A DNA stretch of 32,000 nucleotides from Erysipelotrichaceae bacterium OH741_COT-311 (GCA_003858585.1 RQZE01000010.1:1-32000); one strand, 5' to 3'; positions 9,117-30,554 are shown, counted from the first letter of the stretch. Notes: generated by a model not told the origin, from the sequence alone. Numbers and translations: made by a program.

Positions 9117-11189
9117 TTAATCTTCGTCTTCGTCTTTTACTGCTTCTTTAATTACCTTATCAGAAATATGGGCTGGTGCTTGTTCATAGCGGTCAAATTC
9201 CATATTATATACACCACGACCTTGTGTCATACTTCTTAACTCTGTCGCATACTTCTGCATTTCAGACATTGGAACTTCTGCTGTAATGACTTGATCTTTA
9301 TCCTCATTTAATTCCATACCGACAATCATTCCACGACGTTTATTAAAATCACCAATAATTGTTCCTGTATATTCTTCCGGAACTTCCACAATAACTTTAC
9401 CTACCGGCTCAAGTAACACAGGTTTTGCTTTTGGCATACCTGCCTTATAAGCTAACCTTGCTGCTGCTTTAAAGGCAATTTCTTTACTATCGACATCGTG
9501 ATAGCTTCCATCATAAAGCGTTGCTTTTACACCTACAACTTTATATCCAGCCAATACTCCCTTATTCATACATTCTCTTAAGCCTGCCTCCGTTGCAGGG
9601 AAATATTGTTTAGGAACTGCACCACCAAATACCTCTTCTTCAAATACCATTTCTTCACTTTCACATGGTTCAAAACGAATCCATACATGACCATATTGTC
9701 CTGCACCACCTGATTGTTTTTTATGTTTACCTTCTGCCTCAACTTTGCCACGAATTGTTTCACGGTATTGAACTTTTGGCTGTGTTGTTGTAACTTCTAC
9801 TTTATATTTTGTTTTTAACTTATTAATCACAACATCAATCGCTTGATCACCCATTGCATATAAGACTTGTTCATGCGTTTCAATGTTTTTATCTAATCTT
9901 AAAGATTTATCTTCTTCTAACATTTTAGCAACCGCAAAACTCATCTTATCTTCATCAAGTTTTGTTTTTGGCCAAATCGCAACACCAAGCATTGGTTTTG
10001 GAAACTCAATTTCATCAAATACTACCACTTTATTTTTTAAACACAATGTATCATTTGTATCTGTATTAGAAAGTTTAACCACACAACCAATATCTCCGGT
10101 AAACAATTTACCTGCTGCAACTTGGTTCTTACCTTTAATTAAATAAATTTGAGCAATCTTTTCATTTTGTTCTTTCTTTGAATTATAAACAACAGAATCG
10201 CTAATTAACGTTCCACTCATGACCTTTAAGAATGAAATTTTACCAACAAACGGGTCAATAATTGTTTTAAAGACAAATGCTGATAAACTTTCCTTTTCAT
10301 TTGTCTCAAGTAACACTTGATTACCATCAAGATCTTTCGCTTCCACAACTCCTTTTTCAGCATAAGAAGGGAAATACTCAATGATTAAATCCATTAAACG
10401 ACGAATACCTGTTGAATGGGTTGCACTACCGCAATAAACTGGACGTATATCCCCATTACGTACACCAATACGTAAACCCTTAGCTACTTCTTTTTCATCA
10501 AATGTTTCTCCTGAGAAAAACTTTTCCATTAACTCTTCATCTTGCATTGCAATTGCTTCAGCAATTTGTTGATAATACACACTTACTGCCTCTTTTAAAT
10601 GATCAGGAACTTCCTTAGCCGTTTCACGATCAGCATAATACCAAGCCTTATTTCTTAAAATATTAACAGAACCCACTACAACACCATTTTCTACAATTGG
10701 CATTTCAAATGGAATAACCGTCTTACCAAAATGTTCTCTTAGCTCATTATATGTCTTATCAAACGAAGCATTTTCTTCATCAATTTTATTAATAAAGAAA
10801 ATCGTCGGTAATTTTTTACGATTGACAATCTTCCAAGCCTTTAGTGTGCCAGCTTCTACGCCTTCTTTTGCACCAACAACAATCAAAGCATTATCTCCAA
10901 CACGAATTCCAGCTCTTTGTTCTCCTTCATAATCCAAATAACCTGGAGTATCAATAAAGTTAATTTTGCAATTTAACCACTCTACCGGCGCTAAAGCTGT
11001 AAATACAGATTGTTGACGCTTCATTTCTTCTTGGTCATAATCCAATGTACAGTTACCATCACTAATTTTACCTAAACGATCAATCGCTTTTGTAAAATAT
11101 AACGCAGCTTCTACTAAACTTGTTTTACCACTTCCACTATGTCCTAACAAAACAACATTGCGAACTTCACTTGCTAAATAGTCTTTCAT
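9117..11189 (-). CDS. Elongation factor G paralog (EF-G2-like translational GTPase)
   Basis: G motifs GHSGSGKTS, DTPGY and NKID. Domain IV has YDGSYHDVDSKEIAFK and domain V has LEPV...VPEEYTGTIIGDFNKRRG...LRSMTQGRG. The switch-I region (EEMKRQQSV) diverges from the canonical RGITI. ATG 11189 sits behind an AGGTG RBS that overlaps the ankyrin stop codon. Confidence 0.85.
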   Translation of the reverse strand: MKDYLASEVRNVVLLGHSGSGKTSLVEAALYFTKAIDRLGKISDGNCTLDYDQEEMKRQQSVFTALAPVEWLNCKINFIDTPGYLDYEGEQRAGIRVGDNALIVVGAKEGVEAGTLKAWKIVNRKKLPTIFFINKIDEENASFDKTYNELREHFGKTVIPFEMPIVENGVVVGSVNILRNKAWYYADRETAKEVPDHLKEAVSVYYQQIAEAIAMQDEELMEKFFSGETFDEKEVAKGLRIGVRNGDIRPVYCGSATHSTGIRRLMDLIIEYFPSYAEKGVVEAKDLDGNQVLLETNEKESLSAFVFKTIIDPFVGKISFLKVMSGTLISDSVVYNSKKEQNEKIAQIYLIKGKNQVAAGKLFTGDIGCVVKLSNTDTNDTLCLKNKVVVFDEIEFPKPMLGVAIWPKTKLDEDKMSFAVAKMLEEDKSLRLDKNIETHEQVLYAMGDQAIDVVINKLKTKYKVEVTTTQPKVQYRETIRGKVEAEGKHKKQSGGAGQYGHVWIRFEPCESEEMVFEEEVFGGAVPKQYFPATEAGLRECMNKGVLAGYKVVGVKATLYDGSYHDVDSKEIAFKAAARLAYKAGMPKAKPVLLEPVGKVIVEVPEEYTGTIIGDFNKRRGMIVGMELNEDKDQVITAEVPMSEMQKYATELRSMTQGRGVYNMEFDRYEQAPAHISDKVIKEAVKDEDED

Positions 11190-11198
11190 GCTAATCAC

Positions 11199-11867
11199 CT
11201 ACTTCAAATAATCCTTTAATTCTAAGAAACAATGTTCACGAACATAATGAATTGCTTTATTTCCTTCATGGTCAACAATATCTTTATCTGCACCTTTATT
11301 TAATAAGTAAATAACTAAATCTACATAACCGCCGTAACTAGCTCTCATAAGCGCTGTACACCCTTTATTATCTTTCGCGTTAATATCTGCACCGGCATTA
11401 ATCAAAAAATGAATAACATCCACTTTAAACGCTAAAACAGCTTCTGATAATGCACTACGTCCACGATTATCTTTCGCATTAACATCTGCTTTATGACTCA
11501 CTAACAACTCACATACATCCACATGACCTAAAAAAGCTGCACGCATCAGTGAATTACGACCATTGTTATCATGAGCATCAACATCGGCACCACTTTCAAT
11601 CAATAATTTACAAATATCTAAATGCCCTTTTTTAGCTGCACCCATTAAAGCAGTCTTATTATCTTTATCACGAGCTCGAACATTTGCGTTATTGTCTAAT
11701 AAGAAACGAACAATATCTTCGTACCCACGTTTTGCACTACGCATTAAACCAGTACGTCCATCTCCATTTTTAACATTAACATCTGCTCCCTTTGAAACAG
11801 CCGCACACACTTTGGCAAAATCACCACTTGCACATGCATCAAAAAATTCTTTGTTTGTTAGATCCAT
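11199..11867 (-). CDS. Ankyrin-repeat protein (5 full plus 2 capping repeats), cytoplasmic
   Basis: 33-residue periodicity with G..TALM.AA..G..D.V..LL..GADVNA.D in each unit. AAGGAGG RBS 8 nt before ATG 11867. No signal peptide. The stop overlaps the RBS of the EF-G paralog. Confidence 0.9.
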   Translation of the reverse strand: MDLTNKEFFDACASGDFAKVCAAVSKGADVNVKNGDGRTGLMRSAKRGYEDIVRFLLDNNANVRARDKDNKTALMGAAKKGHLDICKLLIESGADVDAHDNNGRNSLMRAAFLGHVDVCELLVSHKADVNAKDNRGRSALSEAVLAFKVDVIHFLINAGADINAKDNKGCTALMRASYGGYVDLVIYLLNKGADKDIVDHEGNKAIHYVREHCFLELKDYLK

Positions 11868-11897
11868 AATAGTTTCCTCCTTAGTTACAAACAATAT

Positions 11898-11934: not shown

Positions 11935-12015
11935 CTAATTTGTCGTACAAACCCCGTTTAAAACATCGTCCTCACTTACATTATACAAATTCCAAACATG
12001 ATTAACAGTATTCAT
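11935..12015 (-). CDS. Candidate 26-codon leader peptide MNTVNHVWNLYNVSEDDVLNGVCTTN
   Basis: GGAG RBS 8 nt before the ATG. The TAG stop lies 8 nt upstream of the terminator stem. The ORF sits inside the transcribed leader downstream of a consensus-like promoter. Confidence 0.35.
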   Translation of the reverse strand: MNTVNHVWNLYNVSEDDVLNGVCTTN

Positions 12016-12047
12016 AAACGTCACTCCAATCAGGTATCTTTAGTAAT

Positions 12048-12076
12048 ATTGTAAACGCTATCACATCTTAATGCAA
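12048..12076 (-). promoter_or_regulatory. SigA-type promoter of the leader/ankyrin/EF-G transcription unit
   Basis: Minus strand TTGCAT-17 nt-TACAAT, starting 8 nt after the upstream gene's stop. Confidence 0.6.
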
Positions 12077-13752: not shown

Positions 13753-13829
13753 TGGGGCGATTGACGGGGATCGAACCCGCGAGTGCTGGAGCCACAATCC
13801 AGAGTGTTAACCGCTTCACCACAACCGCC
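13753..13829 (-). tRNA. tRNA-His (anticodon GUG) with the extra 5' G(-1) and an encoded CCA
   Basis: Minus strand GGCGGTTGTGGTGAAGCGGTTAACACTCTGGATTGTGGCTCCAGCACTCGCGGGTTCGATCCCCGTCAATCGCCCCA. Anticodon stem CTGGA/TCCAG with loop TTGTGGC. T-loop GGTTCGATCC. The acceptor pairs GCGGTTG with CAATCGC, and G-1 pairs with C73. Confidence 0.9.
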
Positions 13830-29874: not shown

Positions 29875-30062
29875 TAAAAAAAGTCCTTAATAATCTAAGG
29901 ACGAAAATTTCCGCGGTACCACCTTAGTTCATATGTAAACATATGCCCTTTTGCCTTTTAACGCAAAGCCTACGATTATCCATTTCCTGATAATACTTGC
30001 AAGTGATACAACTATAAACTCTTTATTTGGTTCCACCAACCCCAAACTCTCTATAAAATCCT
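29875..30062 (-). promoter_or_regulatory. T-box riboswitch leader (Ile) controlling ileS
   Basis: Minus strand: AGAGAG stem-I start, a candidate AUC specifier (29974-29976) and the T-box AACUAAGGUGGUACCGCGG (29911-29929). The terminator is GTCCTTA-gattat-TAAGGAC plus TTTTTTT. The T-box CUAAGG can pair with the CCUUAG of the terminator 5' arm to form the antiterminator. Confidence 0.88.
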
Positions 30063-30068
30063 TTATAG

Positions 30069-30554
30069 TTACTTGTCTTGCTCATCGCTTTCTTTATTAA
30101 TCGCTTCAATCCAACGAATGTCAGGAAGCCTTGGTAACATTATATCATCAATATCTTGTTGCAGTTGATTAAGTTTCATAATCATATCTTTTTTTATAAG
30201 ATCTGTTGAAGATGTGATTGTACTTAACTCTGTAATAATAATTCGAGCAGTTGTTAAAGCTTCTTTCACAATCACATCCGCATTATTACTGGCACAACCA
30301 ATGACAGAGTTCGCTTCTTTAATTGCTAAACGAGAAATTTCTTGATATGCACTCTCTTTTGTCTGCACTTGCAAAGAGATATCCGCAAGTTCTTCTTTTA
30401 ACTGCTTCATTTCTTCTTTTAATCGATTGATTTCTTTCAAATATAAATCATTCTGTATATTTAAATAGGAAATGGTACTTTGATATTCACTAATGGCATC
30501 ATCTACCGCAAAACGATCGTATCCATTTTTCATCATACGAAACTTTTCGCTCAC
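30069..30554 (-). CDS. divIVA: DivIVA-domain cell-division protein
   Basis: N-terminal FRMMKNGYDRFAVDDAISEY (DivIVA lipid-binding domain pattern) followed by a coiled coil. GTG start at 30554 behind an AGGAGGTGA RBS. Synteny ylmH-divIVA-ileS as in B. subtilis. Confidence 0.75.
   Translation of the reverse strand: MSEKFRMMKNGYDRFAVDDAISEYQSTISYLNIQNDLYLKEINRLKEEMKQLKEELADISLQVQTKESAYQEISRLAIKEANSVIGCASNNADVIVKEALTTARIIITELSTITSSTDLIKKDMIMKLNQLQQDIDDIMLPRLPDIRWIEAINKESDEQDK

Follow-up and report, generated by a model that had tools for sequence, protein, structure and literature searches.

What does a small ankyrin-repeat protein do when its gene lies immediately upstream of, and translationally coupled to, a second gene for elongation factor G (EF-G)? 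The question is raised by positions 9,117 to 11,867 of a stretch of 32,000 nucleotides (nt) from Erysipelotrichaceae bacterium OH741_COT-311 (GCA_003858585.1 RQZE01000010.1:1-32000), the whole of which we refer to as the window and which belongs to a metagenome-assembled genome of 1.51 Mb in 24 contigs (98.5% complete). Paralogs of the EF-G2 type are widespread, occurring in Thermus, mycobacteria, Bacteroides, cyanobacteria and many Firmicutes, and their role is debated, the proposals being slow GTP-independent translocation, stress-specific ribosome binding or service as a spare factor. An initial annotation of the window had described the two genes as a discrete unit and had suggested that the ankyrin protein might be a dedicated partner of the EF-G paralog. 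Here we argue, with a probability that we put at roughly 60%, that the two genes make up a self-contained operon, one that supplies an alternative translocation factor impaired in hydrolysis and, with it, a dedicated ankyrin accessory protein. Coordinates are window positions throughout, and the genes lie on one strand, the minus strand.

The ankyrin gene (11199-11882, identified through Pfam and orthologs) has the Shine-Dalgarno (SD) sequence AAGGAGG at 11882-11876, starts with the ATG at 11867 and ends with a TAG at 11201-11199, encoding 222 amino acids (aa). The gene for the EF-G paralog (9117-11200, identified by its domains and motifs) has the SD sequence AGGTGA at 11200-11195, 5 nt ahead of its ATG at 11189, and ends with a TAA at 9119-9117, encoding 690 aa. 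At the junction, which reads ...TTG AAG TAG GTG ATT AGC ATG, the ankyrin stop codon overlaps the SD sequence of the next gene, so that AGGTGA includes two bases of the stop codon; both the coordinates and the junction agree with the earlier description of a TAG lying inside the ribosome-binding site of the downstream gene.

This adjacency is not peculiar to the strain. Each of 41 relatives carries a canonical EF-G and most carry a second copy, which was immediately preceded by an ankyrin open reading frame (ORF) in every one of the 24 genera of the family inspected first (21/21 and 3/3) and at all 30 further loci, taken from 24 more genomes of the family, the loci coming from 48 distinct family genomes in total. 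The same was found in 13 of the 13 public Erysipelotrichaceae contigs that include upstream DNA, among them that of the cultured Bulleidia extructa W1219. (Related genomes are non-independent samples, and all of our conservation counts are to be read with this in mind.) The gap between the ankyrin and EF-G2 genes is 1-24 nt, the SD sequence of the latter being located at, in or after the ankyrin stop codon, and more than 70 genera, with differing flanking genes, share the gene order, this spacing and the SD-in-stop coupling. Recurring as it does at every related locus inspected, the arrangement is beyond chance, and the check on gene-neighborhood conservation that the initial annotation had called for came out in favor of a linked pair.

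The distribution of the ankyrin gene follows the same pattern. Since most hits of a word-indexed search with the ankyrin sequence were generic ankyrin proteins (~35% identity) and few were fragments of orthologs, ortholog counts were taken from whole-genome searches with an ankyrin ortholog profile. An ortholog was present in 298 of 318 Erysipelotrichaceae genomes; in two other families of the order the counts were 0/1 and 1/81 (a weak match, in the sister family), and ~350 genomes of other Bacillota gave no ankyrin match at an ortholog-level score. All 10 ankyrin-less genomes of the family that were tested (three genera, three closed genomes) have only the canonical EF-G and no EF-G2, and none of the tested genomes has one gene of the pair without the other. 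In a tree of EF-G proteins, the ankyrin-linked EF-G2s form one clade (support 100), and the sole "ankyrin-less" row within it is a contig cut at the start of the gene, and no ankyrin gene adjoins the EFG II genes found in the sister family, Oscillospiraceae or Christensenellaceae. From the single ankyrin-linked clade and the family-wide presence we conclude that the Erysipelotrichaceae gained the ankyrin gene once, at their base; it has stood immediately upstream of EF-G2 ever since, and the pair has been kept or lost together. The profile also gave 100 bits to a second, unrelated ankyrin-repeat region in the same genome (G000:C2:3186-5087), in which one match contains an in-frame TAA.

Which kind of EF-G does the second gene encode? 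The 690-aa protein holds all five EF-G domains (GTP_EFTU, EF-G_D2, EFG_III, EFG_IV and EFG_C in Pfam), and AlphaFold models it on its own with a predicted local distance difference test score (pLDDT) of 89.9 and a predicted template-modeling score (pTM) of 0.84. Its motifs are GHSGSGKTS, EEMKRQQSV (switch I), DTPGY, NKID and SYHDVDS; those of the canonical EF-G of the same genome are AHIDAGKTT, ERGITI, DTPGH and NKMD. The nucleotide-binding motifs G1, G4 and G5 are thus retained, whereas Tyr stands where DTPGH has its catalytic His, and Ser takes the place of the switch I Thr (RQQSV). Domain IV is of the EF-G type, with a tip (SYHDVDS; KKQSGGxGQ[YF]G) identical to that of canonical EF-G. The earlier reading of G1, G4, the domain IV tip and a noncanonical switch I is borne out, but G3, which had been taken as intact, is not: it is DTPGY. 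Calling the protein an EF-G paralog was likewise correct as far as it went, the loss of the catalytic His and the existence of a defined subfamily, EFG II (Margus et al. 2011), having been overlooked.

The published definition of EFG II comprises GhxxxGKT, xxxSx (Ser for Thr), DxPG, NKxD and gSAx, with "RxxSI" in Clostridia (Margus et al. 2011, PMC3150367). GHSGSGKT, DTPG(Y), NKID and CGSA are common to the window protein and 36 ankyrin-linked orthologs, whose switch I reads R-G-x-S-[VI], in keeping with xxxSx and RxxSI. Tyr occupies the position of the catalytic His in 36 of the 36 ankyrin-linked orthologs, where other Firmicute EFG II proteins have A, S, T, N or F. An EFG II protein also coexists with an EFG I copy in the str cluster (rpsL-rpsG-fusA-tuf), and here the canonical fusA (C2:104156-106219; 1198 bits on the EF-G equivalog model TIGR00484) lies right before tuf, with S7 found upstream. 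The window paralog scores 638 bits on TIGR00484, below the trusted cutoff of 659, and passes the generic subfamily model NF009381 with 886 bits (cutoff 583), as does the canonical EF-G (818); its scores on models for Tet(M)-type proteins, RF3, LepA and BipA are far lower. In the tree, whose His-less paralogs are all from Firmicutes, these form one clade apart from canonical EF-G (support 100). On these sequence features, we assign the 690-aa protein to the His-less EFG II/EF-G2 group; of the classes among which the initial annotation had asked for it to be placed, it falls with the EF-G2-type paralogs and not with Tet(M)/(O), RF3, LepA or BipA. The EF-G2 of Mycobacterium smegmatis has the same His-to-Tyr change and is without ribosome-dependent GTPase activity, and in EF-G1 the substitution H88Y nearly abolishes GTPase activity (preprint 10.64898/2026.05.25.727771).

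Two observations concern related proteins. The ankyrin-less EF-G2s of the sister family (L039-L053) have DTPG[A/S/T] and a degenerate G4 (NGxD/SGLD for NKxD) and, judging from these motifs, may have lost guanine specificity. Many relatives, apparently not including the genome under study, encode a further EF-G-like protein of ~840-925 aa (for example G038:C109, G014:C41 and G018:C11), with a G domain and domains II-V, which constitutes a third class of paralog.

When would such a factor be made? The promoter of the unit, found by eye, consists of a -35 element TTGCAT (12076-12071), a 17-nt spacer and a -10 element TACAAT (12053-12048), spanning 12048-12076; it is missing from the list produced by a consensus scan because TTGCAT shares just 3 of 6 bases with TTGACA. 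A promoter of the type TTGCA-17-TACAAT stands at the same place in orthologous loci. Over the spacer and the -10 box lies TGATAGCGTTTACA (12063-12050), which a pattern search found to be the sole perfect match to TGWAANCGNTNWCA in the 1.51-Mb genome and which has the form of a catabolite-responsive element (cre), the operator type of LacI/CcpA-type regulators. Among 33 distinct orthologous promoters, the box is perfect in 11 and matches at 13 or more of 14 positions in 20; the corresponding counts in shuffled controls were 1 and 21 of 875. The ankyrin-less EF-G2 genes of the sister family, which have no leader ORF, carry a similar box at the -35 element at a fixed distance (6/13 perfect), and no cre-like box was present in the promoters of clostridial EFG II genes or of canonical fusA. 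We conclude from this pattern of matches that the promoter carries a cre-like operator. The genome also encodes an HPr kinase (354 bits, cutoff 240). Bacteroides offers a close parallel, fusA2 being the most induced gene there under carbon limitation (238-fold, via the master carbohydrate regulator; PMC6989115). A reversed control pattern of TGWAANCGNTNWCA had 11 matches in the genome, compared with 1 perfect match for TGWAANCGNTNWCA itself. Either the classical cre consensus is unusually rare in this genome or the box is the operator of a dedicated LacI-type regulator.

Between promoter and ankyrin gene lies what would be a second control element. The leader contains an SD sequence GGAG (12027-12024) and a 26-codon ORF, MNTVNHVWNLYNVSEDDVLNGVCTTN, that extends from the ATG at 12015 to a TAG at 11937-11935 (11935-12027 in all). 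It is followed by an intrinsic terminator at 11927-11898, identified by a terminator scan and by folding, with the stem GGTGGGCATTAATGTGTCCGC and a U run (-12.4 kcal/mol, z -3.9); the leader stop codon is 7-8 nt from the terminator stem and the terminator about 30 nt from the ankyrin ATG. Most orthologous loci have a hairpin and T run 28-54 nt ahead of the ankyrin ATG, and of 33 distinct orthologous leaders, 29 contain an ORF of 19-35 codons that is preceded by an SD sequence and whose end falls between -29 and +15 nt (median 0) from the foot of the stem. This is the ordered layout of occlusion attenuators, namely, promoter, SD-preceded ORF, stop codon at or within the 5' arm of a terminator and regulated gene. 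No Rfam family matched the leader at the gathering score or at an E value of ≤5, the fold of the whole leader was no more stable than that of shuffled sequences (z -0.07), the terminator hairpin alone exceeding them, and no pairing that would sequester the 5' arm of the terminator was conserved among 13 leaders. The lack of a conserved antiterminator favors direct occlusion by the ribosome. Neither the clostridial nor the sister-family EF-G2 genes that lack an ankyrin neighbor have a leader ORF plus terminator, from which it follows that the attenuator is specific to the ankyrin-bearing clade.

The leader peptides diverge freely except for a weak motif, h-F/L-x-G-V (h, hydrophobic), and frequent [VIM]-F ends. 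The motif coincides with a repeated nucleotide motif, GTTTT[CT]AA[TG]G[AG]GG, and the signal may thus reside in either the RNA or the peptide. In several leaders, including that of the window (11935-12040), the 5' end with the leader SD sequence (…CC[UC]GAUUGGAG…) can pair with a G/U-rich stretch before the terminator. The EF-G2 loci of Christensenellaceae (L071-L090) have a long and highly conserved 5' leader of another kind, …GTGGTTTACAAGGCGTTTTGAAGCTGATAAAAT…GGCGCGAC…, ~150 nt upstream of the start codon; it has no leader ORF and is perhaps a different regulatory RNA.

Downstream, the unit is closed by an operon terminator at 9116-9075, an 18-bp hairpin with a U-rich 3' side whose predicted stability (-16.4 kcal/mol, z -4.9) was equaled by none of 200 shuffled sequences. 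With TTGCAT-17-TACAAT and the hairpins at 11927-11898 and 9116-9075 in place, the unit indeed has its own promoter, leader and strong terminator. The neighboring genes are unrelated to it: a YgjP-like metallopeptidase and DegV are encoded upstream, an MFS transporter and ArsR-type regulator downstream. Elsewhere in the window, a tRNA gene lies at 13756-13828 (minus strand), between DegV and a methyltransferase-type ORF, and a T-box leader match of 130 bits, above the gathering score, lies at 29894-30094 (minus strand).

The ankyrin protein itself consists of little besides its repeats. Pfam Ank, Ank_2 and Ank_4 span all 222 aa (E value of 5e-42) with no other domain, Ank_2 scoring 142.8 bits (cutoff 27.3) and Ank 131.7 bits, which places the protein in the Pfam clan Ank. 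Counted by register, five complete repeats of 33 residues are flanked by an N-terminal and a C-terminal cap, the repeat motif being G-R-T-A-L-M-R-A-A, compared with the textbook consensus TPLH. The protein is without a signal peptide or hydrophobic segment and is predicted to be cytoplasmic. Orthologs are 222-225 aa long in all genera, with a mean column identity of 70%, and the folded model has paired helices in every repeat (pLDDT of about 90-97). Registers 5, 10, 13 and 14, which line the concave groove, are almost invariant and mainly Arg or Lys (R38, R43, K46, R47, K71, K79, K80, R104, R109, R137 and R175), further conserved groove residues being F112, L113, E142 and Y178. At the finger tips, registers 2, 3 and 33 are variable, and conservation is somewhat higher in the groove than elsewhere on the surface (P = 0.03).

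Is EF-G2 the protein on which this groove acts? We compared branch-specific rates on a fixed 21-taxon topology, regressing branch lengths on those of a concatenate of EF-G1, EF-Tu and S7, and found that the residuals of the ankyrin protein and EF-G2 covary (r = 0.67, P = 3e-6, rho 0.50), whereas those of either protein show |r| of ≤0.32 with EF-G1, EF-Tu and S7. The covariation fits shared constraint, but genes of one operon also share expression, and it is thus no proof of contact. In addition, EF-G2 has 19 positions at which the ankyrin-linked clade has a fixed residue that is rare in other EFG II proteins; 7 of them fall in domain G, 4 in G', 5 in domain II, 2 in domain III, 1 in domain V and 0 in domain IV. 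Among the clade-specific residues are 78, 132, 147, 161, 162, 183, 208, 264, 268, 276 and 356-364. We also folded the two proteins as a single chain, using the natural in-frame read-through with Gly in place of the TAG codon and a block alignment (4 paired rows, 35 unpaired).

A number of results weigh against the operon being what we take it to be. The fused-chain AlphaFold model gave no confident docking of the ankyrin protein on EF-G2 (pTM of 0.69, compared with 0.84 for EF-G2 alone): both modules were confident (mean pLDDT of 89) and the 4-residue linker between them was below 50. These are about the values that the model would give for an unplaced 222-residue ankyrin module, making this a weak test, and given the 4-residue tether, the shallow paired alignment and a model without predicted aligned errors, docking is not refuted by it. 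Co-loss and rate covariation are likewise expected for any two co-expressed genes of one operon, and as Arg at register 5 and basic residues at registers 13 and 14 are close to the general ankyrin consensus, conservation of the groove may partly reflect stability of the fold. On the side of the GTPase, the EF-G2 equivalog models are missed (602 versus 890 bits for NF009377 and 568 versus 1000 for the Bacteroides model NF058620), and in the PDB search a canonical EF-G (530 bits) ranks ahead of Thermus thermophilus EF-G-2 (1WDT, 440 bits) and M. smegmatis EF-G2 (9K0Z, 430 bits). With the NCBIfam cutoffs failed, the link to classical EFG II rests on the motifs and the published "Clostridia" subgroup. 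As to regulation, no CcpA-like LacI regulator scores higher than 266 bits (cutoff 442), and cre-like sites are not enriched genome-wide (119 with at most one mismatch, compared with 179 for the control), which suggests that the regulator may be a dedicated LacI-type protein and not CcpA. Purifying selection on the leader peptides was undetected in three close pairs of equal length (4 synonymous and 17 nonsynonymous changes), a sample too small to decide the matter. Finally, the polarity of the attenuator could be that of induction by a ribosome dwelling at the stop codon or could depend on tight coupling of ribosome and polymerase. The suggestion in the initial annotation that the ankyrin protein is a partner of the EF-G paralog thus gains conserved linkage, co-loss and rate covariation in its favor, and fails to gain docking in a single-chain test of little power.

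The alternative that survives best is that the ankyrin protein acts on some other ribosome-associated target (canonical EF-G, the acidic bL12 stalk, a hibernation factor or rRNA, for instance) and shares an operon with EF-G2 only because the same condition calls for both. In its favor, the fused-chain fold gave no confident docking, the strongly basic conserved groove would suit acidic bL12, or RNA, and other Firmicutes, as well as the sister family, have EF-G2 proteins that function without an ankyrin neighbor. Set against this are the SD-in-stop coupling at every locus, which argues for matched stoichiometry, the limitation of the rate covariation to the ankyrin/EF-G2 pair, to the exclusion of EF-G1, EF-Tu and S7, and the 19 clade-specific fixed residues in the EF-G2 of the ankyrin clade. 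On balance, we regard another target as doubtful, though worth keeping in mind.

The leader suggests a second alternative, namely, a drug-inducible operon for ribosome protection or EF-G rescue in the manner of Tet(M)/(O), FusB or ARE ABC-F proteins, switched on by antibiotic-stalled leader ribosomes. The leader ORF and terminator are indeed laid out as in msrDL-msrD and the tet(M) leader, and the regulated gene encodes an EF-G homolog, as do genes for tetracycline protection proteins. Yet within one family the pair is near-universal and single copy, its inheritance is vertical and its origin single, and no mobile-element context was seen. The EF-G2 scores 321 bits on the tet_protect model NF012153 (cutoff 775) and 224 on that for Tet(M)/(W) (cutoff 1100), and its domain IV tip is that of canonical EF-G. 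Moreover, the cre-like operator suggests nutritional control, and a drug-specific arrest peptide would call for leader peptides less variable than these. A resistance operon is therefore improbable. PADLOC matches were confined to the level of ankyrin repeats and a marginal GTPase match, with no full-length match, and membership in a defense system was rejected.

It is still less probable that the adjacency is inherited gene order without functional meaning. Given non-independent genomes, one ancestral insertion could persist by inertia, but order, spacing and coupling have been maintained across more than 70 genera with differing flanks, and joint retention and rate covariation come on top of this. 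Least credible of all is read-through of the TAG to give ankyrin and EF-G2 as one protein (the two share a frame in the window, separated by TAG GTG ATT AGC), which we reject because the shared frame, present also in 16 of 24 family genomes and 5 of 12 named public contigs (one third being expected), is not conserved in either set, the stop codon is TAA at 9 of 24 loci, some in-frame spacers contain a second stop codon, and every EF-G2 has its own SD sequence and ATG. The same-frame excess (16/24) may be phylogenetic inertia. The ankyrin stop codon is TAG in 15 of 24 genera (junctions L009-L030 and L047-L049). TAG is a rare stop codon in low-GC genomes, and its excess here is explained by the contribution of TAG-G to an AGGAGG or AGGTG Shine-Dalgarno sequence.

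How would the operon of translocation factor and accessory protein work? Transcription would start when a LacI/CcpA-type repressor leaves the operator, most likely under carbon limitation, by analogy with Bacteroides fusA2. Polymerase would read through into the operon only while a ribosome on the last codons or stop codon of the leader keeps the 5' arm of the terminator unpaired, and since read-through would depend on the leader ribosome, expression would report ribosome performance. Translational coupling would then yield roughly equimolar amounts of the ankyrin protein and EF-G2. EF-G2 would enter the ribosomal A site like EF-G, where it would most likely bind GTP but not hydrolyze it, and would either bring about slow translocation with little use of GTP or hold the ribosome. 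The basic concave groove of the ankyrin protein may bind EF-G2, most likely on the side of G, G' and domain II, where the clade-specific substitutions lie, or alternatively an acidic ribosomal partner of EF-G2. Whichever it binds, the ankyrin protein would control the loading, release or stabilization of a factor that is unable to leave the ribosome via GTP hydrolysis, by FusB-like turnover or as a chaperone.

One may speculate further, in a direction that we consider possible but against which we would still wager, that the ankyrin protein is a new kind of translational-GTPase accessory subunit that binds the hydrolysis-dead EF-G2 and, by loading it onto ribosomes or releasing it from them, replaces the missing GTPase cycle, and that the EF-G2/ankyrin pair clears the ribosome at the end of the leader and so restores termination, as MsrD does on msrDL. 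The leader would then be the "monitoring substrate" of a circuit that gauges translocation or recycling capacity in carbon limitation.

Parts of this scheme have counterparts elsewhere. FusB and FusC are horizontally acquired staphylococcal proteins for fusidic acid resistance that have a zinc-binding two-domain fold, bind EF-G and act on the housekeeping factor. The ankyrin protein would, by analogy, be another small soluble protein that binds an EF-G and drives the turnover of that factor on the ribosome; its fold is unrelated to that of FusB/FusC, and its binding here is a proposal. Yar1 is a cytoplasmic ankyrin-repeat chaperone of ~200 aa in yeast, a eukaryote, that serves the ribosomal protein uS3. 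The likeness, an analogy only, is that of a small stand-alone ankyrin protein serving a single component of the translation machinery; in contrast, Yar1 has a ribosomal protein as its client, and nothing in its case corresponds to the operon. In the pyrBI and pyrE leaders of Escherichia coli and the tet(M) leader of Tn916, a ribosome at the end of the leader ORF reportedly prevents formation of the terminator hairpin, and tet(M) encodes a translation factor. For msrDL-msrD, it has been shown by experiment that a stalled ribosome blocks a terminator ahead of a translation-factor gene (PMC10314930). There, as here, the stop codon of a short leader ORF falls at or in an intrinsic terminator and the regulated gene encodes a ribosome-binding translation factor, but msrDL specifies a defined arrest peptide of 6 aa, whereas the present leader peptides are of 19-35 aa and highly variable, and the cre-like operator at the promoter would add a second layer of control.

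The GTPase subfamily is already known, EFG II having been defined by Margus, Remm and Tenson (2011), and T. thermophilus EF-G-2 (PDB 1WDT/2DY1), M. smegmatis EF-G2 (PDB 9K0Z/9K10) and Bacteroides thetaiotaomicron EF-G2 (fusA2) being studied members. The protein described here resembles them in being a second EF-G encoded outside the str operon, in having GHxxxGKT, a switch I Ser, DxPG followed by a residue other than His (Tyr, as in M. smegmatis), NKxD, five domains and an EF-G-type domain IV, and in its likely nutritional control, through a cre-like operator in this case and a carbon-limitation activator in Bacteroides. It differs from them in being nearer by sequence to canonical EF-G than to the solved EF-G2s, and in its coupling to a 222-aa ankyrin protein behind a leader/terminator gate, no partner gene having been reported for the studied EF-G2s. 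We found no paper in the searchable literature on the ankyrin partner, leader attenuator and cre-like operator together, in agreement with the impression of the initial annotation that this is not a described system.

Taken together, the Erysipelotrichaceae, a family of gut, rumen and oral bacteria, add three features to EF-G2: an obligate-looking partner, a nutritional operator and a ribosome-operated terminator. Should the ankyrin protein turn out to serve a translational GTPase as cofactor, bacterial translation would have, to our knowledge, its first described ankyrin-repeat cofactor. The three features together indicate when EF-G2 is wanted and suggest that EF-G2 needs help to work, and they provide EF-G2 proteins with a likely partner and a testable on-switch.

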